Virus record (IMG/VR): IMGVR_UViG_3300003886_000028
Span: 1 to 57,143 of that record
Direction: 5' to 3' (one strand)
DNA length: 57,143 bases
Source of the DNA: a virus
Lineage: Duplodnaviria > Caudoviricetes
Shown: positions 18,140-36,162 of the stretch, one piece after another
Position numbering within the stretch: the stretch's first letter is position 1
Layout: each line of letters starts with the position of its first letter
Program-made: the position numbers and the translations under genes
Notes under the pieces: model-generated
Databases searched by the model: none
The model's input: the letters and a program-made list of their open reading frames with translations, nothing else
What the model was told of the DNA's origin: nothing

Positions 18140-18478
18140 TCACCCATCCTTATTGTCCAAATTTCTGTTGATCAGCGTATCGAGCTTCGTGTTGAATTGC
18201 CTACTCGAGTCTGAGATACGATTGTGCACCACTCTCAACCCTTCCTTGATTTCAGTCATATCGTCTCGTAGATTGTCGTAATGGACCTTTACGACCTGCA
18301 GGCGCGCCTCATGATCCGATATTACGGCATTATTGTCTGCCACCTTGGTACTCAATTCTGCATTCTTTCTCAGCACAACACCTGCAAACGCCGTAGAAAC
18401 AGCCAGTAGCGCCCCGGCTACCCATTCCAGAATTGTAGAACCCGCGGGTGGCGGTATCTGATGTGGCTCAATAGGCAT
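18140..18478 (-). CDS. single-TM coiled-coil protein (holin-like?)
   Basis: N-terminal TM followed by heptad pattern. Confidence 0.55.
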   Translation of the reverse strand: MPIEPHQIPPPAGSTILEWVAGALLAVSTAFAGVVLRKNAELSTKVADNNAVISDHEARLQVVKVHYDNLRDDMTEIKEGLRVVHNRISDSSRQFNTKLDTLINRNLDNKDG

Positions 18479-18481
18479 TGA

Positions 18482-18802
18482 TCAATTATTCCCGCTCAAT
18501 ATAGAGTTTCGACGGTTGTGGTGGAGGCGAATCTCATCGCGCAGTGAAGTAATTTCCTGAACTTCGCCGGCGCTGAGAGGGCGTTGCTGTTGCGCTGCCC
18601 TATCCGTGATTCGTGCAATTTTGAGTTTAAGTACATCGATTTTGTGAGTGATCGACTCCAACTCATTCCAGCTTTGCATTTCAGCATGCTCGCTGGTAGC
18701 GATAGTACGAGGCTGATAAAAATGCGCCGCATCCGAGTAATACCCGGCCAATGCCAATAATCCCACCACTGTTGCAATCATCAGGTTCACCTTTTTGGTC
18801 AT
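18482..18802 (-). CDS. single-TM/signal-anchored coiled-coil protein
   Basis: MTKKVNLMIATVVGLLALAG then helical domain. Confidence 0.55.
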   Translation of the reverse strand: MTKKVNLMIATVVGLLALAGYYSDAAHFYQPRTIATSEHAEMQSWNELESITHKIDVLKLKIARITDRAAQQQRPLSAGEVQEITSLRDEIRLHHNRRNSILSGNN

Positions 18803-19398
18803 GTCGTGCTGCCGTCTCCGGATACGCTTATTTGTGCCGTATCGAGTAGCGTGCCGCCGCTGGAGGCGTTGTAGAAATTGAGCGTGAACGTAGCGTTTTG
18901 GACTCCACCAAAAGCAGAACTCACCCCGATGTCAAAGTTTCCAGCTCCCAGGTTAACGCGCCCCGCTCCAATATCGTCGGTATCCAGTGTTCCCGAGTCA
19001 ATCGTTCGCTCAACCCAGACAGCGCTAGCGGCCCCACTCTCCAGCCAAAGCTCATTTGCGATTGAAAAAAAACCATCCTCATTAGACTGGTAATAATTTC
19101 CATCGGAACTTACGCGAACATTAGCAACCGCCACGCCCTCAATAATTCTTTGGGTTGAATGAAATTTATTCGCCAATTCCACGACCAGGCTTGAATAGAA
19201 CTGCCGCAACGTACCGCTGTCGTTGATCCAGCCTGTCTGAATCTCACGCAGCGTGCCGCTATCGTTGACGTAGATCCCGGTGATTTCACGCAGCGTGCCG
19301 CTGTCGTTGACGTACACGCCTTGGGCAGATACCAGCGAGGTGGCCAGCATTAGCCCCAACGCGAATCGTCTCGCTATTGTGGCGAATCGTTTCATCAA
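18799..19398 (-). CDS. tail-fibre-associated protein with signal peptide
   Basis: signal peptide ending VSA; three (V/I)NDSGTLR repeats. Confidence 0.65.
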   Translation of the reverse strand: MMKRFATIARRFALGLMLATSLVSAQGVYVNDSGTLREITGIYVNDSGTLREIQTGWINDSGTLRQFYSSLVVELANKFHSTQRIIEGVAVANVRVSSDGNYYQSNEDGFFSIANELWLESGAASAVWVERTIDSGTLDTDDIGAGRVNLGAGNFDIGVSSAFGGVQNATFTLNFYNASSGGTLLDTAQISVSGDGSTT

Positions 19399-20582
19399 TA
19401 CACCAGCCGGATATCGCCGGTCGACATACCCGTGGTATCCGTCGGGGTTGTCGCGGTCACCACGATGCGACCACTCGCATAGGCGGTATTATTGTGGGTA
19501 ATCACGGCGCGACCCGCAATATCAATACTGCCGGCACTCTGGCGGGTGATTGTTGTATCGACGCTATTGCCAATATTGACACCACCAAAATGAGGAAAAC
19601 TTGAAGTACCAAGCCCCAGATTGGTTCTCGCGCCTGAAGCCGTTGATGAACCGGTACCGCCTTGGGCAACCGACAAGTCTGTACCCGACCAGTTATTAGC
19701 ATTGATACTGTTCAACGTGGCGAGGGAACCCAGGCCGAGGTTGGTTCTAGCACCCGACGTGGTCGATGACCCAGTACCACCATTGGCAACGGACAGATCG
19801 GTACCGGACCAGTTGTTATTGCTGATCGTAGTCAGCGTGGCGAGGGAACCCAGGCTGAGCGAGGCTCGTGCGGTAGCACCGCTTTCTGCGACCCATGTCG
19901 AGCCATTACCGACAATAAAGTTGCCGTTGGTATCCGCCAGCCCAGCGATCGCACTGAGGTCCGTATCGAAGGCCTGGACGTTCGCTCCAATTGTGAGCCC
20001 TAAGTTGGTTCTGGCGCCACTCGACGTCGACGATCCTGTACCACCATTGGCAACGGACAGATCAGTACCGGACCAGTTGCCACCGTTGATTGTGCTGAGA
20101 GTAGCGATTGACCCGAGGCCCAGTGAGGTTCTAGCGACTGAACCGGTCTCTACGATCCAGCCAGCACCGTTACCGACAATGAAGTTGCTGTCCGTCGTGT
20201 TGAGTCCCGACAACGCGCTTAGACCCGCGTCAAAGGCCTGTACATCGGTACCAATCGCAAGCCCAAGGCTAGTCCGGGCTCCGGCCGCTGTCGTAGCCCC
20301 GGTGCCTCCCACGGAAATACCGAGCCCACCGCTGGCCACGGTCAGCGCGGTGCCACCTGCATTGACCACGACGATATTGCCGCCGTTGCCCGCCAGTGGC
20401 GGCAGCTTGTCCGCTATGTTGGTATCGATCGAGGCAAACTCGGTGCGAAAATCAGCGCTATTAAGCTGCGATCGCTGCACCGGGCGCCCAGTGGCTTCGT
20501 ACCAGTCCTGGGCGCCTGCAATGCCCGCGACCAGAGCGATTCCAAGCAAGAATCCGAATACTTTGTTTCTCATTGACTTCAT
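19395..20582 (-). CDS. tail fibre with GGTG/ARTNLGL repeats and signal peptide
   Basis: repeated LSVANGGTGSST.SGARTNLGL units; signal peptide ending AGA; directly after the tail-tube gene. Confidence 0.8.
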   Translation of the reverse strand: MKSMRNKVFGFLLGIALVAGIAGAQDWYEATGRPVQRSQLNSADFRTEFASIDTNIADKLPPLAGNGGNIVVVNAGGTALTVASGGLGISVGGTGATTAAGARTSLGLAIGTDVQAFDAGLSALSGLNTTDSNFIVGNGAGWIVETGSVARTSLGLGSIATLSTINGGNWSGTDLSVANGGTGSSTSSGARTNLGLTIGANVQAFDTDLSAIAGLADTNGNFIVGNGSTWVAESGATARASLSLGSLATLTTISNNNWSGTDLSVANGGTGSSTTSGARTNLGLGSLATLNSINANNWSGTDLSVAQGGTGSSTASGARTNLGLGTSSFPHFGGVNIGNSVDTTITRQSAGSIDIAGRAVITHNNTAYASGRIVVTATTPTDTTGMSTGDIRLVY

Positions 20583-22693
20583 CCTCTTACCTGAACCGTT
20601 GGCGTAAACCGATAGTGAATGCCACTAAGCAGCAATGGCTCAAAAAAGTCGCTGTCCTTGGTGATAACCCAGCCAATGTTACGACCCTCGCCCCGTAAAT
20701 CCAGCCCTACCGTCGGCACGGTCGTGGAATCATCCCAGACAATGCCGGTATCCCACATCAGCCCGCTGTCCCAAGACGCCCCAGCCGAAGCGGGCATTTC
20801 AGCGGTTTGCGTATCGGGCTGCGCCACTTCGCTACGGCCATAGTCGAGCTGATACCCCAGGTCGAATTCGGCATATCCCGTGCTACGACCCTCCAGGGTG
20901 ACCGGGGCGTAGTACTGCTTTATCCACTCAATCGACTTGCCGTGATCGAAGTGGGTATACAGGTATGCGTAGATATTCTCGCCGTCAAAACTGGTGCCGC
21001 GCTCCATCTGATACACAAAGCCATCATCCGCACCAAAGAATATCTCCTCATTCCCGTCAGGGTCCTCTTCCGACCAGATAGTTGTGATCTGGTGGTTCAG
21101 GGTAATCGGCATCATACCCTTCATCTTCTTGCCTTCCATGGTCGAATAAATCGCCGTTCTATCGGAGAAAAAGAGGCGGTACTGGTTCTTGTCACGCACC
21201 ACACAACTCGCGACCGCCAGCGGCTTTTTCTCATTGATCAGCTTACGCAGCCGGTTACTCATGCTGGAGTGGTCAAAGTTGCCGAAGGCCTGAACGGTAC
21301 GCAGGTCGGTGATGCCTCGATCGTCGAGGAACAATGTGTAGGCCAACTGCTGAATCGTCCACTCATACGCGCCAACCTTTTCGCGGTATCGGATCAGGTT
21401 CCAGTCGCTGGAGTCATTGCCGTACAACGTGAAAATTTGCTGGCGGCACGCGATCAGAAGCGCCGCATTGCCTTCTCCACCAGGTTCCACGTGAAACCCG
21501 GTAATGGGGCTGCCCGTCGCAATTTCGCCAGCACCGAGTACCACAGACCACGCGAATGGCGATCCGATACCTGAGTGCTGGGCACTGCCGTCAAAGCTGA
21601 AAAACAGCTGGTTCTTGTGCACATAGACGTGAGTGGGTGTGTCATCGACCATGCCGGTGCGAATCTTTGCGAACACCGCACCATCGAACTCCCAGCCATT
21701 GTTAACACCATCAGAGCCATAGATTCGTTCCGGCCCTCTCGGATCCGCAAAGTTTGAGCCATCATGGTCAAGCCGTCCGTTGGGCAGCAGCGTGATGGCC
21801 GCAGAATCCCCAGCGATGGTGGCTACGTTCAGGTTTGCGCCAACATTCAGGTTCTCGGCTTGAAACACGCCGACCTGTCCAGATAGCGTGAGCCAACCCA
21901 CAACATCAGCGCCCGCCCAGGTTCCTGATACGAGTTGTACTCGCCGCACCGTCGCGGTGGCACCAGAGATTGCCCCGGTCGCAACATCGCCTTCGGCAAC
22001 CTCGTACGCGCCACCACTGGTGATGGCCACCTCACGACCCAGATCAACCAATACCCAACCCGCTGCGCTTGATCGGTGCAGGGAGGCGGCGAGGCCACCA
22101 ATATCGTTTCGAATCGCGTATTTTGTGGCGCCGAGTGTGAAACCGCCCCATACCGAGCCTTCACCGGGGGCGGCGGTGATGTCGGCGCGGTACGCATCGG
22201 CGGCTAGGTTCTTGTATTGGGCCGTGAGTCTTGTGGTCGGGGAACTGTCAGAATACCCTTGAGCATCCGCATTGCCTTGAACAACAGCGGCAACGGTGAG
22301 GTTTTCAGCCGCATCATTGAATATGCCGGTGACCTTGGTTAGGACCAGGTAGGTCTGTGCCGGGTCATCCGGATAGGTCGTGATGGCAATCACTAGTCCT
22401 GTCGCGGCACTTATCGCGCCCGCCACAATATTACCGACTGCGATCACACCAGTCATGGTTACATCGAGGATGGTGAATCCGGCGGATGACGGCGCGCCTT
22501 GCCCGTCAAAACGCTCATACCCGGCGAGATCCCGATAACCGTCTTCCACCGCTATTTCATAATTCACCGCGTCGCGGAGTACCCCGGGTGGTATTGACCA
22601 TGCCGGCGTCTCCAGATCAAGCCCACCCGCGAATCGAGTGAACGAGTCCTTGGGCCGGAGTCCGGGCGATAAGGGCATGCCTCCGCCAAACAT
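20579..22693 (-). CDS. tail tubular B / DNA-stabilisation protein
   Basis: ~700-aa beta-rich protein, FAGGLDL..GYERFDG N-terminus; ATG overlaps the upstream stop (TGATG). Confidence 0.75.
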   Translation of the reverse strand: MFGGGMPLSPGLRPKDSFTRFAGGLDLETPAWSIPPGVLRDAVNYEIAVEDGYRDLAGYERFDGQGAPSSAGFTILDVTMTGVIAVGNIVAGAISAATGLVIAITTYPDDPAQTYLVLTKVTGIFNDAAENLTVAAVVQGNADAQGYSDSSPTTRLTAQYKNLAADAYRADITAAPGEGSVWGGFTLGATKYAIRNDIGGLAASLHRSSAAGWVLVDLGREVAITSGGAYEVAEGDVATGAISGATATVRRVQLVSGTWAGADVVGWLTLSGQVGVFQAENLNVGANLNVATIAGDSAAITLLPNGRLDHDGSNFADPRGPERIYGSDGVNNGWEFDGAVFAKIRTGMVDDTPTHVYVHKNQLFFSFDGSAQHSGIGSPFAWSVVLGAGEIATGSPITGFHVEPGGEGNAALLIACRQQIFTLYGNDSSDWNLIRYREKVGAYEWTIQQLAYTLFLDDRGITDLRTVQAFGNFDHSSMSNRLRKLINEKKPLAVASCVVRDKNQYRLFFSDRTAIYSTMEGKKMKGMMPITLNHQITTIWSEEDPDGNEEIFFGADDGFVYQMERGTSFDGENIYAYLYTHFDHGKSIEWIKQYYAPVTLEGRSTGYAEFDLGYQLDYGRSEVAQPDTQTAEMPASAGASWDSGLMWDTGIVWDDSTTVPTVGLDLRGEGRNIGWVITKDSDFFEPLLLSGIHYRFTPTVQVRG

Positions 22694-23406
22694 CAGGCCA
22701 GTGCCTTGGCCCACCGCATGCGGTGGCGCCCGTACCATTGATTGAGTACCAACGCGTCTAAGAGCGTCTCACCCTCGGTATTTGCCCAGGCCAGTATTTC
22801 CTGCCCAACCACGTTGTAGGCATATTTGAAGAGGGCGCGATACACGATAAGCATGTGGTAGTCCGAAGGCATTTCGGGAATATCGTCATCGACAGCCATC
22901 TGTTGCAGGCCTTTCCAGTACGTACCCGTGATGCGATAGACCCCATCGGGCGGTGGTCCAACATAGAGCGTGTCATCAGGTTTGACTGAAATTACTCCGG
23001 GGTAAGCTGGCGTGTTGACACCGCGAACATAAACGCCCCGAAACTCCATCCAGGGATAAATAACGAGTTCCCGTTCAGTCAATTTCCCTTCGCTCACCAG
23101 GTAGATAAACGGCTGTTCCTCTTCATCCATATCCCACGCCTTAAATCGTGAGATTACCGCAGCATCATCAACGTCGGTCACTGCGGCGGGGGCGTAGCTG
23201 GCGGTGCTGGCCACAGTATCCAGCGTCCAATCACTACGCAGCCATTTCCAACGTCCGTCCTGGTCGCGCTGGATATCGTTCCACGCCTCGATTGTCCACC
23301 GCACCAGATCCGCGGACCTGCCGACTTGGCCGGTTACCGCGTCGGGGGGACTGCCGGGTAGCTTCGCTTCGTAATGCAGCGTCTGGACGAGGTTGAGGAG
23401 GTCCAC
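22693..23406 (-). CDS. head-tail adaptor (tail tubular A-like)
   Basis: WKWLR, P.PDGVY.I, DDDIPEMPSDYH.LIVY motifs. Confidence 0.75.
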   Translation of the reverse strand: MDLLNLVQTLHYEAKLPGSPPDAVTGQVGRSADLVRWTIEAWNDIQRDQDGRWKWLRSDWTLDTVASTASYAPAAVTDVDDAAVISRFKAWDMDEEEQPFIYLVSEGKLTERELVIYPWMEFRGVYVRGVNTPAYPGVISVKPDDTLYVGPPPDGVYRITGTYWKGLQQMAVDDDIPEMPSDYHMLIVYRALFKYAYNVVGQEILAWANTEGETLLDALVLNQWYGRHRMRWAKALA

Positions 23407-23409
23407 ACG

Positions 23410-23877
23410 TTACGCCACTCGTTGAAACGGGTAGGCCGGTACTTCACGGGGAATGGGGTTCAATCCACCATCTCCCAACGATTCGTATTTGTACGCGATC
23501 GCGTTATTCAGCACCTCAAAATAGGATAGGGGAATATCAACCTCTTTGCCACGCGGTATCAGCATGGCCTTGCCGTTAACACTCACCGGTACCGGCTCAT
23601 TGCCACCGGGGTCTTCGGTAATGCTGATGACAATGCGTACCTTGTCGTCCTCGGGACTGGCCTGGACATCGGTTACCGGTCGCGGGGCAGCGCCGGCATG
23701 CTTCTGAATGTCCTCTTCCTTTGAGACCATGATGTAGTCCTTGCCCCATGCCGCAGTGATTTTCGCCACCACGGTTTCATCTTTCGTGTTTGGCGGAAGG
23801 TTTAATCCGAGCGAGTTATTTGCAAACTCTCGAAACTGGGCCTGAGTTGCCTCCGCGATGCTGATTTTCTGATTCAT
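23410..23877 (-). CDS. conserved head-region hypothetical protein
   Basis: VPVSVNGK..LIPRGKEVDIP..EVL..A motif seen near N4-gp56-type capsid genes. Confidence 0.7.
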   Translation of the reverse strand: MNQKISIAEATQAQFREFANNSLGLNLPPNTKDETVVAKITAAWGKDYIMVSKEEDIQKHAGAAPRPVTDVQASPEDDKVRIVISITEDPGGNEPVPVSVNGKAMLIPRGKEVDIPLSYFEVLNNAIAYKYESLGDGGLNPIPREVPAYPFQRVA

Positions 23878-23898
23878 TGTCTGTTACCCCTTGGGTGA

Positions 23899-24498
23899 TT
23901 ACTCGTCGTAGCCCTCAAGCTCAATCAAGAACTTGCCAGCGGTGTAGACCGCATTAGTACCGGCGCCACTACCAACCAGATACACATACTCATCATCGGC
24001 AGGCAGTCCGGTAAATGCCCGAACGGTGCCAATGGCCCAGTCGCCCGCCGCGGTCTGCAGCGCGGTTTCCGTCAGGCCCGCGACAGGAGCATCTTCAGTA
24101 CCTGTTTCCTCAGTAGCTGAATACGCATCGATATCGGGTTCACCGGTGCCTGGCGCTTCGAGGCAGGTCATCCGGCCCGAGAAGATAGTGCCGTTACGTG
24201 CCTTGGTGATACGGCCAAGGTGGCAGTTAGCTGCAGCCTCGACGCCGATGATGTCGCCGGCGGCCGAACTGCTCAATCCCGTTAAATCAATGAGAATTGC
24301 GGTTTTGATAATGCCGCCGACTCGATCGACGCTTGATTTGATGATGGTGCCTGTGCCCGCGGAAATTCCGGCGCCAGCGCCGACCTCGAGGGTTTTGCCT
24401 TCGACCTGTGATCGCAGCAGTATTTCGAGTGAATTCAGATGACCACGGCCCGCCTGTTGGGCGTACTGAAGCGATTCAGCGGTTGTCAATGCCTTCAT
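23899..24498 (-). CDS. putative virion structural protein
   Basis: GAGGAA RBS before ATG 24498; Gly/Ala/Thr-rich beta protein. Confidence 0.65.
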   Translation of the reverse strand: MKALTTAESLQYAQQAGRGHLNSLEILLRSQVEGKTLEVGAGAGISAGTGTIIKSSVDRVGGIIKTAILIDLTGLSSSAAGDIIGVEAAANCHLGRITKARNGTIFSGRMTCLEAPGTGEPDIDAYSATEETGTEDAPVAGLTETALQTAAGDWAIGTVRAFTGLPADDEYVYLVGSGAGTNAVYTAGKFLIELEGYDE

Positions 24499-24534
24499 GA
24501 TGCTATTCCTCTGTTGTTGAGACAACGCAAAGAT

Positions 24535-24556
24535 GGGGCGGTCTGGAGACCGCCCC
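24535..24556 (-). terminator. GC-rich hairpin after capsid/decoration genes (terminator or attenuator)
   Basis: GGGGCGGTC-TGGA-GACCGCCCC (plus strand); weak U-tract on minus strand. Confidence 0.55.
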
Positions 24557-24565
24557 GGCTATTGC

Positions 24566-25117
24566 TTAGTTGTCGTTACGCCACGCGGTCCAGCGCAGGA
24601 GTCTCGCCTCTTCGGCAACAGTCGCACCGATGGTGAAACCCTTAGAACTGGTACCGGAGACGCCGACAAACGCCGCGATGCCTCCGGCGCCCGGCGGCGC
24701 TGCGGCCACCTCAGTGTCGATGTCGTAACCGTGCGAGACCTGGACGGTCACAGTTGCATCATCAACGGCGCCAGCCGCTTCACCGATAATGTTCTCGGCT
24801 TGGAACGTTCCGAAGATTTGATCGCGTTCAGCAACAAAGAACCCCGCCGCGTCACCGCTAGGCCAGTCGCCGGAGTACAGCAGCACAGATTCGACAAATG
24901 CCGTGGCGCCTGATGTCACGCCAGTTATCTTGGTGCCCGGGACGATTGCGTTGATGCCGCCACCGCTAAATGGGATGACCATCCGGTTAGGGAAGCCAAC
25001 GGTGACAGAGTCACCGTCTGTGGCGTTGAAAACCTCTACGCGATCAGGAATCCAACCGAGTTCGACGTTGATGGCGGCTGCATTACCAACCACTTCGCCT
25101 GATTTGAAAGATTGCAT
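24566..25117 (-). CDS. putative capsid decoration protein
   Basis: GAGGA RBS before ATG 25117; INVELGWIPDRVEV motif; immediately after the capsid gene. Confidence 0.6.
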   Translation of the reverse strand: MQSFKSGEVVGNAAAINVELGWIPDRVEVFNATDGDSVTVGFPNRMVIPFSGGGINAIVPGTKITGVTSGATAFVESVLLYSGDWPSGDAAGFFVAERDQIFGTFQAENIIGEAAGAVDDATVTVQVSHGYDIDTEVAAAPPGAGGIAAFVGVSGTSSKGFTIGATVAEEARLLRWTAWRNDN

Positions 25118-25164
25118 AATAATTTCCTCTATATGCGTTGTTGAGACTGGTGCCGCACCTCGCT

Positions 25165-26175
25165 TTACAGCAAGGTGACAGCAACTTCCAGGCGAGCCAT
25201 CCAGAGTTGATTCAGGATGATTGTGGCGTGCCACGTCTTCCATCCCACGTATCCGCGCTGGCCCAGTGGATCAGACTTAGATATAACTCCCGGCCGCAGA
25301 ACGGTGGGAGAAATAGCGCCTTGACCACGAAGTGGTACGGTACCGTAGGCATGCTTCCCGATATACAGAATCGGGTAAACGTCCGCACTCACACCCGACG
25401 TGGAGACCATGTCGCTGCCCGATCCGCCGAACGCACCGCCAGCATCGGTAAACGGATCAAGATCTGGCGAGCAGATATAACGCACATCCTCGACCGTTCC
25501 GAGCTCGTATTCGCTGATAATCTGGCGACTACCGTATTCAGCGGTCGGCGTGAAACCTTGGAGATTCCGGATATCCTGCTCAACATCGGTGTGGTGAATC
25601 GCGACATACGCTGCCTCAACTGGCTTGGTGCCGTAGTTAACGCTGCCACTCAAGATGCGGGTGATCTTGTACGACTTCTGCGCCTTCAACGCTCGCATCA
25701 CTGCGCGCTGCTTGTTCAGGCTGATCGGCGTGTTCACTACGCTTCGGCTCGCGCCGTTGGCATAGACCACGTTGGTACCGGCCCGGAGTACACCCCAGTT
25801 CAGGGCTTCCAGGGTACGGCCAATATTTTCACCGGCCTGTTCCGTTGCATCGTTCAGCACCGGATCTTCGTGGGTGTCTTCGATCACATCAGTGATCTCG
25901 ACGATTTGCCCGTATTGCTTCAGAGAGACCGAAACGTCTTCATAAGCAAACTGGGTTGCCGTCGGCGTAATGCCCTCGACCAGCGGCGTTGTCGCAGCGG
26001 TGAAGACCTTGGGACGGCGGAATTTGATGGTTTGCGTCTTATTCCGGGGCATCGGCTTAATCATGCCGAATTTGTCCAGAATGACGACCGGGGCCTGATG
26101 CTTAAGCATTTGGCGCTCAGCATAGACATTAGTACGCGTACTGACGCCTGGGTCGGTATAACGGGTAGTAGTCAT
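25165..26175 (-). CDS. major capsid protein, N4-gp56 family
   Basis: TIKFRR, PLVEGITP, LKQYG, SDPLGQRGYVGWK. Confidence 0.95.
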   Translation of the reverse strand: MTTTRYTDPGVSTRTNVYAERQMLKHQAPVVILDKFGMIKPMPRNKTQTIKFRRPKVFTAATTPLVEGITPTATQFAYEDVSVSLKQYGQIVEITDVIEDTHEDPVLNDATEQAGENIGRTLEALNWGVLRAGTNVVYANGASRSVVNTPISLNKQRAVMRALKAQKSYKITRILSGSVNYGTKPVEAAYVAIHHTDVEQDIRNLQGFTPTAEYGSRQIISEYELGTVEDVRYICSPDLDPFTDAGGAFGGSGSDMVSTSGVSADVYPILYIGKHAYGTVPLRGQGAISPTVLRPGVISKSDPLGQRGYVGWKTWHATIILNQLWMARLEVAVTLL

Positions 26176-26194
26176 GGCTTACGTTCCTGAGAGT

Positions 26195-27295: not shown

Positions 27296-27456
27296 TTCTC
27301 GCCAGCACCGTCAAGAGCGCTCTTCATTTCACGCTTTTTCTTCATTGCCGCTTTCAAGCGCTTTGGGTCAGCCTTGATCTTTTCCGCATCAATGAGTATG
27401 CGTAGATCATTCTCGGCTTCCCAGTCTTTGTCTGAGGCTGAAATTGATCGGGCCAT
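27292..27456 (-). CDS. small basic head-region protein (54 aa, not in ORF track)
   Basis: MARSISASDKDWEAENDLRILIDAEKIKADPKRLKAAMKKK...; start and stop overlap both neighbours. Confidence 0.7.
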   Translation of the reverse strand: MARSISASDKDWEAENDLRILIDAEKIKADPKRLKAAMKKKREMKSALDGAGEK

Positions 27457-27692
27457 TAGCTTTCAATCCCGTCGCGGGTTTCTACCAGACCCAGAAGTTC
27501 TTTGAGTTCTTCGACGGCACCACGCTGATTCTCGGTGTCCGACATATCCAGTCCCACCACTTCCAGATTGCCGCGGCGCATCTTAAGGCGACCATTAGCC
27601 CAATCGCGAATTGCCAACCAGGTATCACTAGCAACGTCAATGCTGTGTGGTGCCTGCTCTTCAGCCAAAATACTAGAAATATCCGCCACCAC
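27456..27692 (-). CDS. small head-assembly protein after portal
   Basis: W..I...L....RG...LKELL pattern typical of small post-portal genes. Confidence 0.6.
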   Translation of the reverse strand: MVADISSILAEEQAPHSIDVASDTWLAIRDWANGRLKMRRGNLEVVGLDMSDTENQRGAVEELKELLGLVETRDGIES

Positions 27693-29898
27693 TGGGTCCT
27701 TGTTGTTGCGTAACCGCTGCTTCGGTAGCGATCATACGTTCCTTGCTACCTCGTTCCTCGCGAGCATCATCCAATTTTGCACGGAGTTCGTCAAGTTTCA
27801 TGTTGTTCACCCCCGCGAGCTTGATGAGTTCTGTTTCTCGATTCAAGTTTGCTAACGCGATTCGCCCGTCCCATTCCATTTGCTTTGCGTTCATCGCAGT
27901 TTCGAGCTTTATCATTTCCAGATCGGGCTGGGGCGGCGATTTAGCGGCCTTAGCCTCATCCTGAGCTATTTCTTCGTTGGTCTTCACCAGATCGTTGGCC
28001 GGAATCATCATGGTCTGTGCGAGCCGGCGCAGTCCGAGTAATCCCTCTTCCTTCAAATATTTTCCGAGCGTGGGATGATTCGCGAAATTTCCGAGGAATA
28101 ACAGCAGGTTTGCGCTTTGGAGTTCGCGAACCAACAGTACCGAGGTACCGCGCGCATCCACTTCGAAATCACCTTTGATCTGCTCTTTCTTACTGAATTG
28201 CATCAGGAAGTCGTACATCCGACGAATCGTGGGCGTGGTGATATCGTCGTCCCAGTTTTTCACAATTCTCCGAAACACAACGTTCGCCGAGTTCATTAGC
28301 AGTGACATGCCCTGGGCAGTCTTAGTTACATTCGCGCCCTGCTCGCCCTGAGCAATAACGGGCATGCTCGTTTCCTCATCGATATTGCGTTTGCACAGTT
28401 CGATGAGGGCCGATAGTTCTTGTAGGTGGCTATCTATATTAATGACCTCAAACGGTTTTTCGTTCTTGGGTGCTCCTGATTTTCGTATCCATATTTTTCG
28501 CGGCTCCAGCGCCCACACCCCATTCTCAGGCTCTATAATTTTAGGGTTAACAACAATTTGTGGACCCGACGCGAGGCCAGCGTTGTCCATCAGTGCCCGC
28601 CATGCCGCCGCCATAGCGGCCTGCGGGTCTCGCATGATGTAGGGGATACCAAACCCAAATATGCTGGCATCGTCCTTTTCGAGGCAAAACACGCTGTAGA
28701 TCGGATCACCGCTATCGAGATAGTGGAGTCCAAACTTCAGCAATTCGCCCTGGCAGAACCAGACAACGGCTTCGACTTCATCGAGCGGGTCAACCTCAAT
28801 GTCTTCGAGATCACTAAGAATGCCCTCGTTCTGACTCAACGCCGCGATTTCCTTCATTTCGTCCATGGACAGCGGGCCGTGATATTCCCAAACGTGGTAT
28901 CGATCGGTCACGCTTTCGTTGTACGACCCCGTGATTGATCGTAGATCAGCCAGGTATGTCGGGGTGGTGCTATTTGCGCCCGCAATGATGAGTCGACGAA
29001 TCGCGTCCTTATCAAAGCCGGGACGGCGTGAGAGTCGGCGCAGTTGTTTCTTGTTCAGCATGTGGCGTTCGTAATTGCCCTCGCTGTCCTCAATTTTAGT
29101 GGCATCCATATCGGGGAAGAAGTTCCACGGGTCGGTACGCCACAACACGGGTCTGGTGTCATCGACCTCGTTCATCGAATATTCGGTCTTGCCCTCAATA
29201 ACCTCGCCATTCTCATCAAGCAGGTTCTGCAACTTCCAGGCACGCCGCGTGCGATCGCCAATTACCGGGCCTTTGATAATGCCGGTCCCCATTTTGCAGG
29301 CGTCATCAATGATTTCGCGGGCCTGAGCCGCGTAGTTGGCTTGGCGCAGATGGTCGTCAATCTCTTCTTCCATGGCCCTGGCGCGCTTTTTAGCCTCATC
29401 CATGCGGGCCTGGACCGACTCGGCGGCTTGTGCCGAACCTTCAGCAGCCGCTTTCAGTTGAGGGTTTTCGGGATCCGCTGCAGCCGCAATTTCAGCGGTG
29501 GCGGCGGCTTGCGCTACTTCTTCTGCCTCAACGGTGAGTTCCGGGACCGGTGTTGGGCCTATTCCCCAGTTGCGATCGTCGGTCGGAAACAGCATGTCCG
29601 ATAGCCGCGACGCCATAGCGTTTGTCTTCGGGCGCGTCGAGTTTATGAACAACATTGATTTTCTTGCTTTTTTGAACTCTTCTTTCAGGCCAGTACTGTA
29701 TCTGCCATGAAATTGAGCCAGATCATCGAGCCAGCGTTTTTCTACAATTTCCCGCTCACCGACGCGCCGCTCCGCCTCTTTGTCGAGACGGCCCACGATG
29801 GCGGCGAGGCGTTCCGCGGTGTCTTTTTTCTGGCTATCGTCGTCGGGATCGTTGAACGATTCGCCGTATTCTGATTCAGGCTTTGGAGTGGATGCCAT
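27673..29898 (-). CDS. portal protein
   Basis: 741 aa; TRPKT, GTGIIKGP, DPWNFFPD, FGFGIP, TAQGMSLLM, IKGDFEVDARG. Confidence 0.9.
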   Translation of the reverse strand: MASTPKPESEYGESFNDPDDDSQKKDTAERLAAIVGRLDKEAERRVGEREIVEKRWLDDLAQFHGRYSTGLKEEFKKARKSMLFINSTRPKTNAMASRLSDMLFPTDDRNWGIGPTPVPELTVEAEEVAQAAATAEIAAAADPENPQLKAAAEGSAQAAESVQARMDEAKKRARAMEEEIDDHLRQANYAAQAREIIDDACKMGTGIIKGPVIGDRTRRAWKLQNLLDENGEVIEGKTEYSMNEVDDTRPVLWRTDPWNFFPDMDATKIEDSEGNYERHMLNKKQLRRLSRRPGFDKDAIRRLIIAGANSTTPTYLADLRSITGSYNESVTDRYHVWEYHGPLSMDEMKEIAALSQNEGILSDLEDIEVDPLDEVEAVVWFCQGELLKFGLHYLDSGDPIYSVFCLEKDDASIFGFGIPYIMRDPQAAMAAAWRALMDNAGLASGPQIVVNPKIIEPENGVWALEPRKIWIRKSGAPKNEKPFEVINIDSHLQELSALIELCKRNIDEETSMPVIAQGEQGANVTKTAQGMSLLMNSANVVFRRIVKNWDDDITTPTIRRMYDFLMQFSKKEQIKGDFEVDARGTSVLLVRELQSANLLLFLGNFANHPTLGKYLKEEGLLGLRRLAQTMMIPANDLVKTNEEIAQDEAKAAKSPPQPDLEMIKLETAMNAKQMEWDGRIALANLNRETELIKLAGVNNMKLDELRAKLDDAREERGSKERMIATEAAVTQQQGPSGGGYF

Positions 29899-29899
29899 G

Positions 29900-30643
29900 T
29901 TAGTAGGCCGTCCTGGGGTCAGTGGCCGTTTGGCCGTGAATTAAGTGCTGCTGAACCGGCACTGGTATAGCAATAGCTTTGCCGGAAAGCACGATATACC
30001 GCATTGTATCCATCAGATGATCAAAGACATTGACAACATTACCTTTCTCGTCTCGCCGGTACAAACGGTACTCGGCCTGCCAATTCATTAGGGTTTTGAA
30101 TATCTTGAGGCGGCCCGTGGAGAGCAGGTTCCAAACGTCGTAAATCCCAGCCTCCAGCGCATTCGCTGACTCGGTCAGGTTCAGTCCGAGATCCCGATAC
30201 GTGACCAAAAGCTGTTCACCGTCTTTTTGACTGCGCCCTCGCGCCGCGGGATCAATTAATCCCGGTATCCACTCGCCGCGTGCCTGGATTGCGGTTACGT
30301 GAATCGAGGGTTCGGCCTTGCCACGGTAGTGTTCGGTGTACATATACCAGCAGTCGGACTCTCGATCGAGAGCGGCCCAAAGCGCGGCGGTGCGGTTCCA
30401 GCCCACATCCAACGCATAAACGCGTGGCCAATGAGCGGGTATCGCAAACGGGTCAACCAGAATTTCCGACAATTGAATCGGGTAAATCGCGCCAGCACCG
30501 AGGCTTGGCTCGCCTTTTGAGCGCGCGTCTCGTAAGTACTCTGGCGTGGCCTCCATGAGTTCACGCTTGGTCTTCTCGTCGAGATGGGGCACATCGTCCC
30601 AACTCGCGGTGACCAGATACTTCGATTGTGATATTTCAGGCAT
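29900..30643 (-). CDS. terL: terminase large subunit, C-terminal RNase H-like nuclease half
   Basis: WDDVPHL, ALDVGW, IDPAARGRSQ, YRRDEKG, DHLMDTMRY. Confidence 0.9.
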   Translation of the reverse strand: MPEISQSKYLVTASWDDVPHLDEKTKRELMEATPEYLRDARSKGEPSLGAGAIYPIQLSEILVDPFAIPAHWPRVYALDVGWNRTAALWAALDRESDCWYMYTEHYRGKAEPSIHVTAIQARGEWIPGLIDPAARGRSQKDGEQLLVTYRDLGLNLTESANALEAGIYDVWNLLSTGRLKIFKTLMNWQAEYRLYRRDEKGNVVNVFDHLMDTMRYIVLSGKAIAIPVPVQQHLIHGQTATDPRTAY

Positions 30644-30805
30644 AAAGCGGTTTCCGTCGCTTACCGGTACAAAACTTTCCCGACCTCACCGGTTTACCCA
30701 TGACGCGCCCGGCAGAAAAAAGCAAATACGGGGTTAGGCACATTTAGGGAGCGACAGCATTACAGGTAGCACCGCGAGACTACCCTGGAGTCGAGGTCGC
30801 CCCAG

Positions 30806-31201
30806 TTATGAGCAATCCGCATCGCAAAACGCGACCCGGAGCGTGCCTTCGCGCACGTCGTTATTGGATAGCCCGACCCAAAACCCGCCGGCGGGAATGC
30901 GGAAGTCGCTAGTCGTTAGGCCTGTCGTCGGACTCGTACCCAGCTGCATATGCATGACCTCATCGCAGTAAATCCAGAGATATCGTGTACTCGATGTAAA
31001 CGCACTGGCGATTGCGGCTGGCGCAGTCGCCGTGACGACCTGCGTCCTCGGTGTCGGCGCCGTGACTAGCGGTATATTAATCCGATTGCCACCCAGGTCG
31101 GTGATCAGGCTCGTGAACTCCGAGACCGAGCAGGTCGCGGCCAATGCCTGAGATAACGGCAACAGCGCCAGCAGTAGTGTTGATAAAATCAATCGCTTCA
31201 T
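30806..31201 (-). CDS. secreted beta-rich protein
   Basis: GGAG RBS; signal peptide MKRLILSTLLLALLPLSQALA; four Cys. Confidence 0.75.
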   Translation of the reverse strand: MKRLILSTLLLALLPLSQALAATCSVSEFTSLITDLGGNRINIPLVTAPTPRTQVVTATAPAAIASAFTSSTRYLWIYCDEVMHMQLGTSPTTGLTTSDFRIPAGGFWVGLSNNDVREGTLRVAFCDADCS

Positions 31202-31219
31202 TATTTCTCTCCAGCGGGG

Positions 31220-31453
31220 CTAATCCCAGTTATCAGGAAATCTAAACAAATTTTTCAGGTCGTTGTCACTACTCACCGGGGAGGGCGGGTCGGGTGGCAG
31301 ACACGACTCATCCAGGTACGAGGCTTGCATATAAGCGGGACCAAAATATCCGCCAGCGACAAAGCAGTCTGCCTCAAGGCTGGCATTGCCAACCGAAGAA
31401 AACAATACCAGTCCGGTGGCGGCCAGGGCTACGGTGCTACTACGCCTTCGCAT
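31220..31453 (-). CDS. small putatively secreted protein
   Basis: basic N-terminus, hydrophobic core, GNA cleavage-like site, two Cys. Confidence 0.5.
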   Translation of the reverse strand: MRRRSSTVALAATGLVLFSSVGNASLEADCFVAGGYFGPAYMQASYLDESCLPPDPPSPVSSDNDLKNLFRFPDNWD

Positions 31454-33292
31454 ACTGCGTTCTCCACAATGATGTAGTTGTCGGTGCTTACCGCGGCGGT
31501 CATTGGTCTGAACAGCACGGTATCGCTGGCGGCCGTGAAGCTGTAAATGCAGCTGGTCTGGCCCGCCGCAGCACCCGAGGTCATGACGATCGCGTTGCCC
31601 TTCCAGTAGTCGTTACCTTGCGTGAGCGCGGCGTCAACACAGGTCGTGGTGGATCCAGAATCACACGTTCCGGTGCGTAGCGTGTAACCGTTCAATATGG
31701 AAACTGTGGTCACCGCTCCAATCGTGTTGTTTTCACCGTTATATCCGGTGCCATCAAAAAACCGTTCCGCGTTATCGGCGGCAAACGCATCACCAGAGAT
31801 AGCCCCAACATCAACCGTGTCTGTAGAGGCATTGAAATACGTGTCGGACGGGACGGATCGTGCGATAAACTCAGCATCTGTTGGCGAGTCATAGGCGAGC
31901 AATGCTGCATCCATTTCTGATCGCATCTGGACCGTGCTGAGATTGTTCAGGTTACCGATGATGTTGCCAGCAGTACCCGCACCGTAAGCGCCTGGCAGCG
32001 CCGTCAACCACGGATCTCCGGCCGAGGCGGCACCGTCCAACAGCAGATCGAGCCTGCCGCCATCTGCCCACTCGGTTTGCAGTATGTTTGTATCCGCAAC
32101 GATTGCGGAGTTTGTATCCATTTCAATTCGAATTTGCTCAACCGTAGGAGATGAGCCGCCAGCACCGGTAAGCCACGCTACATCACCCCGGGCGCGTATC
32201 GCGGCGAGGCTATGGGTGCCGGTCAGGAACCCTGCGCCCTCAATACCCACAAACCTTGTGGGATAGTCGTCAGTCTGTAGTTCGTTTGTATCGGCCAGGA
32301 CCGCATCCAGGTCTGTGCAGAGCTGAAATTCGAGTGTGCCGGCAACCGGAGAAGCACACGGAAGCGCGGCCCATGCCGCGGTGAAATCGTTAGCGGTTTG
32401 CAGTGGCGTTGAGATTGCGGTGCCATTCCAGAACTGGGCATCAGCTGGAACAAACTCGCCAAACGAACCTGTAGCCGTATGACCCGCCCGAAGCTCATCC
32501 CACACTCCATCAGCTATTGCGGCTACCGTGGGGGCAGAACCACCTGCACCTGTAGTCCATGTCCCCGCCCCACCGGCAGTGGTTTGAACCAGTATGGCGT
32601 TGATGTCGGCGCTATTATTATTAGCGGTTTGAGCCGTGCCGGCAACAGCCGCGATATCAACACGTCCGGTTGTCGCTGTAATCGACAAATCCGACCAGTT
32701 AGTCGGTGCTGACACAGCCAATATTGCTGAGTTAGTGCCGCGCATCGGAGCGGTGTCGACACCGTCCGTACCGCGCATATTGGCTACGGTCGTGACATTC
32801 GCGACAGTATCTACCGCGGGATCGAAATAATCAGCGGCCAGTACCGTCCGCAAGATCAAGTCGGCATTTATCAATCCATCGTAGTCAACCAGAGCGGTAT
32901 CGGCTTCGGAATTTACTTGCGCTGCCGTTAGCGAACCAACAGCCGATGCTGCGTGAAAGTTGTCATAAACCGACTCTTCATACACATAGCAGCGCGTGAA
33001 ATAGGGTGCAGCGCCAGCAACCTGCACATCAATACTCAAAATTCCTACCGTTGCGGTATCCGTAGCGTCAAGAACAATTTGGTATTTCCCAATCTCGTCG
33101 TGCGTCGCCCCGCCCGATATCCGTGTTGGCAATTGTCAGCGCCGTTTCAGCCGTTACCCCGTCCGTTGAGTCCACAAACGGTCCCAGCAGCAATTCCTGA
33201 CTGGCCGTAGACTGACGTAACGCACAATCGGATGCTAACGCCGGAATCGACAACAACGATGCGAATACCGCAATAGTTATTCGTTTGATCAT
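31429..33292 (-). pseudogene. tail-fibre/adhesin-like protein with signal peptide, frameshifted at ~33116
   Basis: 5' ORF (signal, LRQSTASQ..GPFVDSTDG..TIANTDI) continues in another frame as SGGATHDEIGKY..LDATDT; Ala/Thr/Asp-rich fibre repeats. Confidence 0.7.
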
Positions 33293-33294
33293 TA

Positions 33295-34050
33295 TCAATT
33301 TTCCCCTAAAAGCTGTCGGTTGTAGTGAAATATCGCATTATTTGTGGCGCTTACTACAAATCCTCTAACCACAACTGTTGTCGCTGTCCAATTCTCGCTC
33401 TCGCTCAGCGTAAATGCGCTGGGATCATCAGTATCCGCCGCCAAATCCCGACGCGCCGAGAATATACGACACGACGCGTTGACTGTATTGTTTACAATTG
33501 TTGATGTCTGCCCGACCGTATAATCTGTAGGCCAGGTGCTGACGCTTGAATCATCATCTGAAACGCCCACTATGGTAATGAACGTATTGTCATCGACACC
33601 CCAACTCGCTGTTACCGCAGTTGGATCAGGATTGGTATTGCCCCCATTCGCGTAGACCGAAATTTCTGGTGGTGTCGTGCCGTGCCAATTCTCAATGCGA
33701 TAAACCTGTCCGGCCGTCTCTGTGGCGCCGAACTGAAGGCTGAACGATATTGTCGTACCACCCTCAGTTCCGTCCGATATTCGATAACCCGTCCACGTAG
33801 CAATCCCACTTCTGAGGCCCTCAGCGAGTAATGTCCAACCTGCCGGCACGGTTATCGCACCAACGCTGTTCCCGGTCGATAAGGTCACAATTAACAAATC
33901 GCCGCTATTAACCGTGGCTGGATTGTCAATTATCGCGGGGTTTCCACCCGTCGTATTCAACGTTTCGGTTATCGTGATGCCTGTCGGGAAATTCGCGTAG
34001 ACGGCTCCCGACAGGAGGACTGTTACCAAGAGTATTAAGCGTTTTCTCAC
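33295..34050 (-). CDS. secreted beta-sandwich tail-type protein
   Basis: GTG start overlapping upstream TGA; signal peptide ending VYA; GDLLIV..PAGWT motif. Confidence 0.7.
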   Translation of the reverse strand: MRKRLILLVTVLLSGAVYANFPTGITITETLNTTGGNPAIIDNPATVNSGDLLIVTLSTGNSVGAITVPAGWTLLAEGLRSGIATWTGYRISDGTEGGTTISFSLQFGATETAGQVYRIENWHGTTPPEISVYANGGNTNPDPTAVTASWGVDDNTFITIVGVSDDDSSVSTWPTDYTVGQTSTIVNNTVNASCRIFSARRDLAADTDDPSAFTLSESENWTATTVVVRGFVVSATNNAIFHYNRQLLGEN

Positions 34051-36141
34051 GATCCCGGTTTCCACAGAATTGATCCGCCGTCACCCGACCCGCCGCCGCC
34101 ATTCGAGGCTGCACACCACACCACGCCATAGCGCGGGATTGCTGCGGGTGTCCATGATCCACCGTCGTTCGTACTGATGGGCAAATTGTCCCAACACGGA
34201 TGCGTGAATGACTCTAACGTCCACTGCGAGGAGAGCGTGGTTCCCGGAACATCATTGTTGGTCCAGACCCTGTTACCGCGACGCTCCAACAACATTACTG
34301 TTCTATCGTTACGTGGATCGATCAACAGGTGGGCACCAGCATTGATGTCGCTCTGTACGCTAATTGGGAGCGGTACGAGCTGCGGTGTCGCGCTCGGATT
34401 GATCCCATAGCTGGCCGGAATGACAATACCGTCCAGCGAGACGTCGCGGCCTGAGCCGAAAAACACGACGTCATGGCCGGGAATATACAAACTGCTGTTG
34501 TGGTTTCGGTTACCGTAGGGCGGTCCCAAACCAAAATTAGCGCCCTGTGTCCAGGTTTGAGCGAGTTTGTCGAACCACGCAAAACGCAGTCGAACCACGC
34601 AAAACGCACTGAACTGTACGCGAACAGCCCTGGCCTGCCTGGCCCCATTAGATTTGGATGATACGCCGCACCTGGATTAGGGCTATCCGTTGACCAAATG
34701 TCGAACGCCGCTAACGGCAAATCAGTCCACGTGTCGGCAGATCGTGAATAGTGTCGGATCGTGCGCGTTCGGACGGGTGCTGCGGTGTGACCGTCCTCGA
34801 CATGGTAGTAATCGCCCGGATCATCCGTGTGATCAAATGCTGCAGTCCAAATATGCCCAACCTTGCCTGGCGTGACATCCAAATTGGGTGAGCGCCATGT
34901 ATTTGTTTGTTCATCGTAAATAAAGTGTCTGGCCGCTCCCCCACTCTGCGCTTTGCCCATATACTGCAATTCACGATTCTCGTTATCCCAAAACGCGGTG
35001 CGGTTCTGCCACGAAATATCGAACGCCTGGCTCTGCGGATTAAACGCAATCGCATCGGCAGTCCACGCACCGTTTGCCAGTGCCGCTGCGGCCAGTTCCA
35101 GCACAGAGCCGCTAAATGTACTCGGCGGCGGGATGTATTGTTTGGAGAAAATCAACTGATCGTATTTTTGCCAGAAATCAGTCGCGATGTTAAATCCATT
35201 GTGAAATGTGCCTAAGATTGTTGCGTTCCACGCATGTGGGTCAATTTCCTGATAATCAATCACTTCTGATTGGGCATCGAATATTGTCGTATACGTTTTC
35301 TCACCTGCGCGTACACGCCTGACAACAATTCGGGTGGTCGCGGCGAGTTCATCACCCGGTCCGACTTGGTACAGGTAATGGATCCATTCATCGGTAATGT
35401 GCGGAACGTTGGGTACAACAGTCGTCGTAGACTGCCCACCGGCTTTGTACAAATCGAAATCAACACTATTTTCGTAGTTGGTAACCAGTTCCTGCGCGGT
35501 CAGAGAACGTTGGGTTCTTGTTAGATATTTTATTTTTCCACCGTCAATCCCGACCGGTATTCGCCGCGGGTCTAACTTCATCGCCATTTGAAAATAGAAT
35601 ACATCCATGTGCCCTCAGATGCCGGACCATAGTCACCACCGACCCACGTCTGAGTTTGATTTCCATCCGGCACCGGCGCCCATGTTCGCAACGTTAAGTT
35701 GCCGCCATCGGCCGGATCGTTAGTGACTTTTCCGTTACCCGGTGCAGCCATCGGTGAAAACGGACGCCACCAATCTTTTCCGTCGGTTGAGCCTGCCGCT
35801 CTAAATGCCTGTAGAGACCCGCCTCCTGTTAGAAAATCGTTAGTGTCTCTGAATATAGAGTTTTGCGGGCGCTGCAATCCGGGCGCATCAAGTGGGTCAT
35901 TTCCATAACCATTCGTCCAGCGGAACTGAGCAACTTCTGCGTCATCGCGAAAATCATGATTCCAAACCACGCCGTCCAGATTTGAGCGGTATTGCCAGTC
36001 ATTTTCCGCCGCGCCTGTCGGGGGTGGAGGCGGCTCCACCATGATCAATCCCGCATCGGCATCGCCGATCAACGCACGGCCCACCGCCATTAGGATGGCT
36101 AGGAATACCACTCCTATGCTGAGTATTTTGATTTTTTTCAT
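34047..36141 (-). pseudogene. ~690-aa secreted lyase/lectin-like plus Kelch-like propeller protein, broken by two frameshifts
   Basis: three overlapping ORFs; joined by +1 nt at ~35607 and by removing a 20-bp tandem duplication at 34569..34608. Confidence 0.7.
34569..34608. repeat. perfect 20-bp tandem duplication
   Basis: GTCGAACCACGCAAAACGCA x2. Confidence 0.95.
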
Positions 36142-36162
36142 AGACGGGTATTTCCGGGTCGG

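Follow-up and report, generated by a model that had tools for sequence, protein, structure and literature searches.

Why should a tailed phage, whose assembly is by the textbook account entirely cytoplasmic, place what look like cleavable Sec-type signal peptides on its tail fibres? This question is raised by a 57,143-bp viral record (IMG/VR record IMGVR_UViG_3300003886_000028; the whole stretch is referred to here as the window), which is estimated to be 91% complete and has all of its late genes on the minus strand. A first-pass annotation had described seven late open reading frames (ORFs) that begin with a basic N-region, a hydrophobic core and an AxA-like site, and all seven were found on the minus strand with the coordinates and N-termini it had quoted. 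It had called capsid, portal, adaptor and tube leaderless; the capsid and portal proteins and two tail proteins of 237 and 719 amino acids (aa) were not flagged by our scan for leaders, and the close cysteine pairs it had listed (CASPVAGTLEFQLC, CDSGSTTTC and CDADC) are present in the ORFs. It had also raised the possibility that the leader is an addition to an existing protein, and we find this in four unrelated families, where the leader precedes an N-terminus which most homologues have immediately after the initiator methionine. The leaders are probably genuine export signals, as suggested by their grammar, their exact placement at a conserved N-terminus, their repeated gain or loss, their co-occurrence within modules and their association with cysteines.

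The scan was a heuristic of our own (n-, h- and c-region rules plus an AxA site) and not a trained predictor. To be flagged, an ORF had to show a net positive charge ahead of the core, 8-18 uncharged core residues averaging at least 1.7 in hydropathy, small residues at -3 and -1 no more than 8 residues past the core, and no proline at +1. At a score of at least 3.4, 8 of the 65 window ORFs of at least 70 aa were leader-like, namely the seven and 18482..18802, compared with 19 of 936 ORFs of at least 100 aa (2.0%) in 80 related loci, which had been fetched by terminase similarity and were not selected for fibres. This approximately six-fold enrichment over the related-loci background argues against an artefact of wrong start codons or chance hydrophobic N-termini. 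Three weaker matches (scores 2.5-3.1) were plus-strand ORFs overlapping minus-strand genes and were taken as spurious.

Lysine or arginine precedes the hydrophobic core in 7/7 ORFs, and the h-regions, of 8-17 residues with a mean Kyte-Doolittle value of at least 1.7, are shorter than a membrane span; that of 35578..36141 is the longest and is ambiguous. The predicted sites have small residues at -3 and -1 (AGA↓Q, VSA↓Q, ALA↓A, GNA↓S, ALA↓S and VYA↓N, the arrow marking the cleavage site), the same -3/-1 grammar is kept in the leader-bearing homologues of the four families, and none of the seven has a lipobox cysteine at +1. Two ORFs have a twin-arginine look: 31220..31453 starts MRRR and has a weakly hydrophobic core, and 18799..19398 has an RR that is missing from its homologues. 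The grammar also bears on the possibility that the N-termini stay uncleaved and serve as inner-membrane anchors for the fibres, or as hydrophobic elements inside the virion or the fibre trimer. The product of 18482..18802, beside the fibres, is clearly of the signal-anchor type, and 35578..36141 and its counterpart in the metagenome locus L130, with a long hydrophobic stretch and then a conserved GRAL(V/I)GD, could be signal-anchors too. An anchor needs no small residues at -3 and -1, so that their retention at the junction with the conserved N-terminus, across dozens of otherwise divergent leaders belonging to four families, speaks against anchoring, as does the shortness of the h-regions, and we regard it as improbable.

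The four families are fibre A (19395..20582), the repeat protein 18799..19398, the beta-sandwich protein 33295..34065 and fibre B (33068..33298 plus 31429..33132). In each of them, the start of most homologues coincides exactly with the cleavage site predicted in the window, and leaders are found in a minority. The first two belong to the tail module:

19395..20582, minus strand: fibre A, a tail fibre precursor with a 21-24-aa Sec-type leader (AGA↓QDWY), a conserved N-domain and GGTG..AR..LGL repeats
18799..19398, minus strand: 199-aa small distal-tail protein with a leader (..SLVSA↓QGVY), three VNDSGTLREI-type repeats and a beta-sandwich C-domain
20579..22738, minus strand: 719-aa tail protein, nozzle- or tube-B-like to judge by its position; its place upstream of the fibre is conserved in L098, L108 and G001-G003

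Fibre A matches nine PHROGs named 'tail fiber protein' (E down to 7e-16) and, through its repeats only, PDB entry 7z47, 'Putative tail fiber' (E 4e-5). Among the best 120 of its 4532 homologues, 20 (the window's own record included) have the N-domain DWY..G.P...S.L.S...R.EF..I......KLP.L.GNG; in 15 of these a 19-26-aa leader ending in AxA stands directly before (Q/A/E)DW(Y/F), and the other five start MSDWY or MSEYY. In our alignment of the family (A1), the leaderless homologues start MSDWY at the cleavage site of the window's protein. When fetched loci were included (n=54), 18 N-domains had a prefix of 19-26 residues and 36 a prefix of 1-3, with none between. The probable start of fibre A is the second ATG (codon 4), which has the better-spaced AAGAGG and leaves the leader unchanged. 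A leaderless isoform made from an internal start was considered and rejected as impossible, since there is no ATG, GTG or TTG between codons 12 and 35.

When 51 distinct N-domains of fibre A were placed in a maximum-likelihood tree (63 columns; many forks unresolved), four changes of leader state were required, at least two of them forced by well-supported branches, and 0/500 label shuffles gave as few as four. The window falls within a leader-bearing clade of 15 (support 100/95), and L087, L098 and L108 are isolated leader-bearing tips beside leaderless ones. In L098 and L108 the tail protein is followed by the fibre, as in the window, and L108 further shares the portal, capsid and tail-protein PHROGs with the window. 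The leaders of L108 are found on the 493-aa fibre and then on downstream ORFs of 190, 177 and 491 aa, where the scan flags the 190- and 491-aa ORFs, the fibre was assigned by alignment of its N-domain and the 177-aa ORF by eye. Two further homologues with leaders, the repeat protein P0245 and the fibre P0123, have a longest listed contig of the same length (6765 bp), and because of this shared value are taken to lie on one contig. On the sequences compared, leader presence is a module-level trait, as seen in L108, in L130 and in the P0123 and P0245 pair. Downstream of the leader-bearing fibre module of L108 there is also a 70-aa lipoprotein-like ORF (..LLLSVGC, 17469..17681).

Three relatives reached via their terminase loci, the proviruses G001 and G002 as well as G003, have the same synteny as the window: the tail protein, the fibre and, at some distance, an acetyltransferase followed by a giant protein whose N-terminal repeats are the same. 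The fibre in this slot is leaderless in all three (MTNGFFNHDN.., MSNDYFTHEN.. and MANDYFDSID..) and has an N-domain of the same kind. The window's fibre A thus holds the slot of the leaderless fibres of its syntenic relatives, no leaderless fibre paralogue was seen in the window, and docking on the tail protein is predicted, so that the earlier view of fibre A as a true tail-module fibre stands. When the 719-aa tail protein was modelled together with three copies of fibre-A residues 25-100, a kind of modelling that the first-pass annotation had proposed, docking was predicted with an ipSAE of 0.61 against 0.00 for the best control. Among solved complexes 58 of 80 attained this value, and among mismatched pairs 2 of 110; these counts hold only roughly here because our own alignment and three copies were used. 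The runs agreed in at least 82% of contacts, with a partner pLDDT of at least 76, and at the modelled interface residues 34-43 from each of the three fibre chains surround tail residues 653-671. The model supports binding of the mature fibre-A N-domain to the tail protein, and the predicted docking surface lies 10-19 residues from the cleavage site, a further point against an uncleaved anchor. The 'tail tube' name of the 719-aa protein reflects its position only; its sole PHROG match is labelled 'amidase' (E 3.6e-7), and a PDB sequence search gave no match.

These observations also bear on another explanation, in which the proteins are exported and are not virion parts: they would mask or modify the receptors of the producing cell (for superinfection exclusion, or keeping progeny off debris), or act as decoys or adhesins. 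The occupation of the fibre slot with no leaderless paralogue seen, the predicted docking, and the retention in leader-bearing forms of the N-domain, the particle-attachment end in fibres, all speak against it for fibre A, as does the lack of a +1 lipobox cysteine, unlike lipoproteins of the Llp/Cor type. The evidence in its favour is taken up below.

For the repeat protein 18799..19398, 15 homologue matches were obtained and 14 were read: three have a leader and then the first repeat, seven start at the first repeat, three lack the repeats and match in the C-domain only, and one is the window's own shorter call. The latter, the public gene call P0241 (136 aa), starts 63 codons downstream, past the leader and the three repeats. 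It could be cited in favour of a start-codon artefact, as could the fact that two leader-bearing ORFs are fragments of frameshifted genes (see below). The homologues show that the longer ORF is real, and thus that automatic annotation hides the leader; moreover, conservation among homologues, full-length ORFs of L108 and L130 included, covers both the leaders and what follows them. Together with the enrichment described above, this makes an artefact highly improbable. An AlphaFold2 (AF2) model of the protein had a pLDDT of 72.5, and a Foldseek search with it against PDB gave no usable match (best E 0.02).

The third family is represented by an intact gene:

33295..34065, minus strand: all-beta protein with a leader, from a large viral family in which the members lacking a leader start M-AFPxV

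At E<=1e-3 it has 3772 homologues. Among the best 150, most align residue ~25-26 of the query to their own residue 3, and 24 are leader-like. There were 61 stand-alone members (<=275 aa), of which 27 have (A)FPxV within the first four residues and 12 were flagged for a leader, one of them doubtful; visual inspection suggested a leader in four of the other 22, and most of the remainder open with variants of the motif. The AF2 model (pLDDT 91) is all-beta after the leader helix. A Foldseek search of PDB gave no usable neighbour (best E 0.017, TM <0.3); matches in BFVD included many viral proteins, among them Mycobacterium phage 'minor tail protein' entries (E 1e-8 to 1e-5, TM 0.5-0.7). A scan of viral contigs with this protein gave no match. 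Cellular proteins have the domain joined to PKD, Ig, LamG and InlB-B-repeat domains, and it is therefore taken to be an extracellular-type binding or enzymatic module.

The fourth family, fibre B, is rich in cysteines and is split between two ORFs:

33068..33298, minus strand: leader (..SIPALA↓SDC) and first ~45 residues of the N-domain of fibre B, out of frame with the body
31429..33132, minus strand: body of fibre B, with repeats and 7 cysteines, including C-x12-C and C-x8-C pairs; 1265 homologues

The frame breaks between the start of the N-domain and the body, at a G-rich run near 33105..33120. Among the best 120 of the 1265 homologues, 37 have the LKQSTA..GPF.D N-domain, and 35 of these start M-x-LKQSTA; in the remaining two, P0018 and P0031, a leader precedes the same LxQ(S/A)TAS..GPFVD N-domain as in the window. 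Five members with other N-domains (P0002, P0026, P0030, P0019 and P0050) are also leader-bearing. The seven leader-bearing members have 6, 6, 6, 8, 6, 8 and 8 cysteines, an even number in every case, compared with a median of 2 in 107 complete leaderless members, only 11 of which have at least 6. The C-x12-C 'QLC' motif was found in this family only in the window, P0002 and P0018. The combination of a leader with 6-8 cysteines fits oxidative folding in the periplasm. In the collection of 50,697 cultured-phage records, fibre B had a single match, to Microcystis phage Mvi-Yong1342-1 and in the N-domain only.

The first-pass annotation had treated the seven ORFs as one late-operon appendage system, and in this it was not borne out: two are in the tail module, and the other five are held by a 5.5-kb cargo island interrupting the gene for the large terminase (TerL). 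The terminase halves and the remaining island ORFs are as follows:

36163..36990, minus strand: N-terminal (ATPase) half of TerL, a separate ORF (phrog_31467, E 4e-76, and phrog_2 TerL; tblastn matches in 409 phage records)
35578..36141, minus strand: fragment 1 of a 689-aa gene, with a leader or signal-anchor (MKKIKILSIGVVFLAILMAVG..ADA↓GL) and 72% identity to the start of the L130 ORF
34322..35608, minus strand: fragment 2 of the 689-aa gene, 91% identical to L130 over residues 3-342, with frame changes at both ends
34047..34598, minus strand: fragment 3 of the 689-aa gene, 92% identical to L130
34569..34608: perfect tandem duplication of 20 nucleotides (nt) that shifts the frame between fragments 2 and 3 and is absent from L130
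L130, 7950-10019: the 689-aa gene as a single ORF, with a leader or anchor
31220..31453, minus strand: 77-aa ORF with a weaker leader (MRRRSSTVALAATGLVLFSSVGNA↓S) and 2 cysteines, without homologues
30806..31201, minus strand: 131-aa ORF with a canonical leader (..SQALA↓ATC) and 4 cysteines, without homologues
29900..30643, minus strand: C-terminal (nuclease) half of TerL, a separate ORF (phrog_5653 and phrog_2 TerL; 415 phage records)

Three of the island's leader-bearing ORFs (35578..36141, 33295..34065 and 33068..33298) belong to a mobile three-gene cassette shared with L130, an unrelated phage whose intact 585-aa TerL, portal and SU10-type capsid protein are not similar to those of the window. 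The cassette encodes the 689-aa protein, the beta-sandwich protein and the disulfide-rich fibre, all with leaders, and in L130 these form three consecutive leader-bearing genes directly after the portal gene. Its DNA is 77% identical between the window and L130 over 2677 nt; at the protein level, identity is 76% for the 33295 homologue and 57% for the fibre, P0002. Since the 689-aa protein is a single ORF in L130, 35578..36141 is its first fragment and not a gene of its own. The gene is broken twice in the window, near 35578..35608 and by the 34569..34608 duplication, and only the 33295 gene of the cassette is intact as assembled. A search for sequencing runs covering 33000..36200, aimed at these frameshifts, listed none. 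Two frameshifted genes cannot be essential virion parts in the genome as assembled, and the cassette is, to judge from its reading frames, dispensable or decaying in the window. A third copy of the duplicated unit, 75% identical, is present at 34700..34719. The N-domains behind the fibre leaders differ, being of the QSTA type in the window and of the EYGV type in L130, as would be expected if the N-domain were matched to the carrier phage.

It is this island that favours exported proteins outside the virion. Five of the seven ORFs lie in cargo that is different in each relative, the cassette is mobile between unrelated backbones, with a place outside the tail module in both the window and L130, and its two broken genes point to dispensability. 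In addition, 30806..31201 and 31220..31453 are small, cysteine-containing orphans, and the 689-aa protein gave a weak sialidase/BNR-like match in Atlas (0.84), which is a lead only. For the cassette itself, a function in the virion is no more likely than one that is directed at the envelope or accessory in some other way. As an account of the whole set, which includes fibre A, a non-virion function seems unlikely to us. The leader of 31220..31453 has the lowest score of the seven (3.48), and its signal may be of the Tat rather than the Sec type. Lipoprotein exclusion factors of the Llp/Cor type were considered for the two orphans and rejected, as neither site (ALA↓ATC and GNA↓SLE) has a lipobox cysteine. 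A PDB match of the 689-aa L130 protein covered only a TPR-like stretch of ~35 residues and was taken as spurious. PHROG searches gave no match for any of the eight island ORFs, Pfam no family for the ten ORFs under study, and the cultured-phage collection no match for 30806..31201 or the 689-aa protein. Promoter-like and terminator-like sites in the island (6 against 5.7 expected, and 7 against 6.7) were not above shuffles, and no repeats flanking its ends were found.

The terminase split is itself a recurrent feature. The two halves, 5.5 kb apart, together cover the contiguous TerL of EBPR podovirus 1, the nearest annotated terminase relative, with the N-half aligning to residues 18-266 and the C-half from residue 7 onward. 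Among 78 related loci with both halves, 35 are fused and 43 split, the latter comprising 18 adjacent pairs, 16 with gaps of 60-500 nt and 9 with gaps above 500 nt; the largest gap, of 7439 nt, is in L002, the nearest relative. The inserted ORFs differ from locus to locus and are unrelated. The terL gap is a fixed hot spot for cargo, a moron-like island, in this clade. An intron was rejected as an explanation because a search of 29800..37100 against Rfam, including group I and II introns, gave no family at E<=0.1; intein motifs were not part of that search. The N-half ends in a stop codon and the C-half opens with ATG. A terL split by a cargo island was not described in the full texts searched, with supplements outside the scope, nor was the phrase 'split terminase' found in them. 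A split terminase with a hypervariable island in its gap represents a recombination hot spot worth a study of its own. In other terL-gap islands, that of L015 (6026..6600) encodes a Tat-like signal (MRRRSFLRGLAAAAAS..) and a Sec-like one, and that of L002 a lipoprotein-like ORF (..FPIVAC, 985..1434) and a leaderless 745-aa gene similar to fibre B.

What we infer from these lines of evidence is that the proteins are exported, cleaved and folded in the periplasm, and when and where they attach. In the explanation that we favour, Sec/signal-peptidase-I signal peptides have been grafted onto distal-tail proteins, which would mature in the periplasm and attach at lysis; taken as a whole, we consider it evenly balanced between right and wrong. 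Fibre A and the product of 18799..19398 would be made as precursors in the tail module, exported via SecYEG and cut just before the conserved N-terminus, and the mature N-terminus would thereby be the same as in the cytoplasmic fibres of related phages. Both would fold and trimerise in the periplasm, and the mature N-domain would dock on the 719-aa tail protein of fibre-less particles when cytoplasm and periplasm merge at holin-mediated lysis, or just after, a form of extracytoplasmic 'tailing'. The island ORFs would be cassette parts and two small exported proteins (30806 and 31220) outside the tail module. The further step in which the tail-module fibre, once exported, becomes attached to particles at lysis or later, as synteny, the retained N-domain and the docking model suggest, has a chance that comes close to even without quite reaching it.

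Several points weigh against this explanation. Assembly after export needs particles and fibres to meet only at lysis, for which we know of no precedent in tailed phages. Fibre A and most of its leader-bearing relatives have no cysteine (none in 9 of the 15 leader-bearing fibre-A proteins), so that disulfides are not a general reason for export, and the association of cysteines with leaders in fibre B (Mann-Whitney p 2e-5) is uncorrected for the relatedness of the sequences. The leader calls are heuristic and comparative. The two frameshifted genes among the three of the cassette reflect either a cassette that the phage does not need or assembly errors. A diderm host is surmised from the endolysin PHROG and a weak Rz-like match alone. 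Finally, the fibre-A N-domain was absent from the cultured-phage collection, where only its repeats gave matches. A scan of genome contigs with alignment A1 yielded two loci from metagenome-assembled genomes, both leaderless, and hence no host information.

More tentatively, the window may belong to a scattered class of tailed phages in which a whole receptor-binding module, fibres and accessory proteins alike, is Sec-exported, folds in the periplasm (in some cases with disulfides) and is attached to fibre-less particles only at lysis, the gain or loss of a ~22-residue leader switching its compartment and leader-bearing cassettes moving between unrelated phages. If fibres are exported in this way, completion of the particle may be extracytoplasmic and tied to lysis, and disulfide-stabilised receptor-binding proteins would be possible in phages of diderm hosts. 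Leader-bearing ORFs in late operons, which are usually dismissed as morons or membrane proteins, may then be determinants of host range, and engineered fibre swaps would have to keep or remove the leader deliberately. The pattern of four families with repeated gain or loss lends itself to clear and cheap experiments.

The remaining genes place these modules in the late region. In order of transcription, it consists of a TerS-like gene, the TerL N-half, the 5.5-kb stretch of ORFs, the TerL C-half, the portal and the capsid genes, then small head and tail genes, the 237-aa and 719-aa tail proteins, the fibre and the 199-aa ORF, and lastly two small membrane/coiled-coil proteins, an acetyltransferase, a 3428-aa protein and the endolysin:

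36956..37492, minus strand: TerS-like gene
27673..29898, minus strand: portal
25165..26175, minus strand: major capsid protein, HK97-type
18140..18802, minus strand: pair of small proteins immediately following the two leader-bearing genes; both have a single transmembrane segment and a coiled coil
4034..14320: giant 3428-aa ORF, the N-terminus consisting of short L(T/D)GL.PLD repeats
3197..3787: endolysin, by PHROG match

The two small proteins of 18140..18802 are probably of the lysis or spanin type and not exported appendages: 18140..18478 matches an Rz-like spanin PHROG weakly (E 2e-4), and 18482..18802 looks like a signal-anchor with a coiled coil, though it was flagged by the scan. The pair lies between the fibre genes and the virion-protein genes, far from the endolysin (3197..3787). 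The C-terminal ~1100 residues of the giant ORF match giant PHROGs of unknown function (phrog_616, E 1e-257), and its counterparts with the same N-terminus have 2376 aa in G001 and 2919 aa in G002. Elsewhere in the window there are two large DNA methyltransferase genes (42540..44432 and 51566..52783), a DHH phosphoesterase gene (1129..1944) and, in the early region, an ORF (44408..45169) that starts MQATIIGIITLSLSFTAHA↓GKPKP, which is leader-like with an n-region that is not basic and was missed by the scan. A tRNA search of the window found none, and no near-DNA match to 18000..37500 was found in the cultured-phage collection.

The layout recalls that of Bcep22-like podoviruses, for which the sections of the JC1 paper drawn on here (PMC9144972) describe several tail fibre genes, a giant virion protein and then a lysis module, as well as a stretch of accessory genes inside the packaging genes. 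The terminase, however, is of another type, and in those sections the gap lies between TerS and an intact 533-aa TerL, whereas in the window terL itself is in two pieces; SignalP is applied there only to lysis proteins and to lipoprotein prediction.

Signal peptides on the tail fibres of tailed phages were not described in the full texts searched, supplements again lying outside the scope. The nearest known cases are of four kinds. The Sec-exported or SAR endolysins, such as Lys44 of the oenococcal phage fOg44 and Lyz of P1, have an N-terminal signal and wait outside the cytoplasm until lysis. They too are late phage proteins with an N-terminal Sec signal, but they are lysis enzymes, whereas the cargo in the window is a tail fibre with an N-domain common to cytoplasmic fibres. 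In the filamentous phage Ff, g3p and g8p have cleavable signal peptides, g3p needs periplasmic disulfides, and assembly is extracytoplasmic. These are likewise virion proteins with signal peptides, but inoviruses are extruded through the envelope without lysis, unlike a tailed phage with an HK97-type capsid, a portal, a terminase and an endolysin. Llp of T5 and Cor of phi80 and N15 are receptor-blocking lipoproteins encoded beside receptor-binding genes, and offer a possible model for 30806..31201 and 31220..31453, which are small, predicted to be exported and near fibre genes. Here, by contrast, a lipobox cysteine is missing throughout, and the main cases are the fibres themselves. Finally, P22 heads with tailspike, and the long fibres of T4 in vitro, demonstrate that fibres can join finished particles by mixing. 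Such attachment after assembly is what the proposed mechanism needs, although in P22 and T4 both partners are cytoplasmic. Sec signals, fibres and morons are each known, and what is new is their combination and the assembly pathway that it implies.

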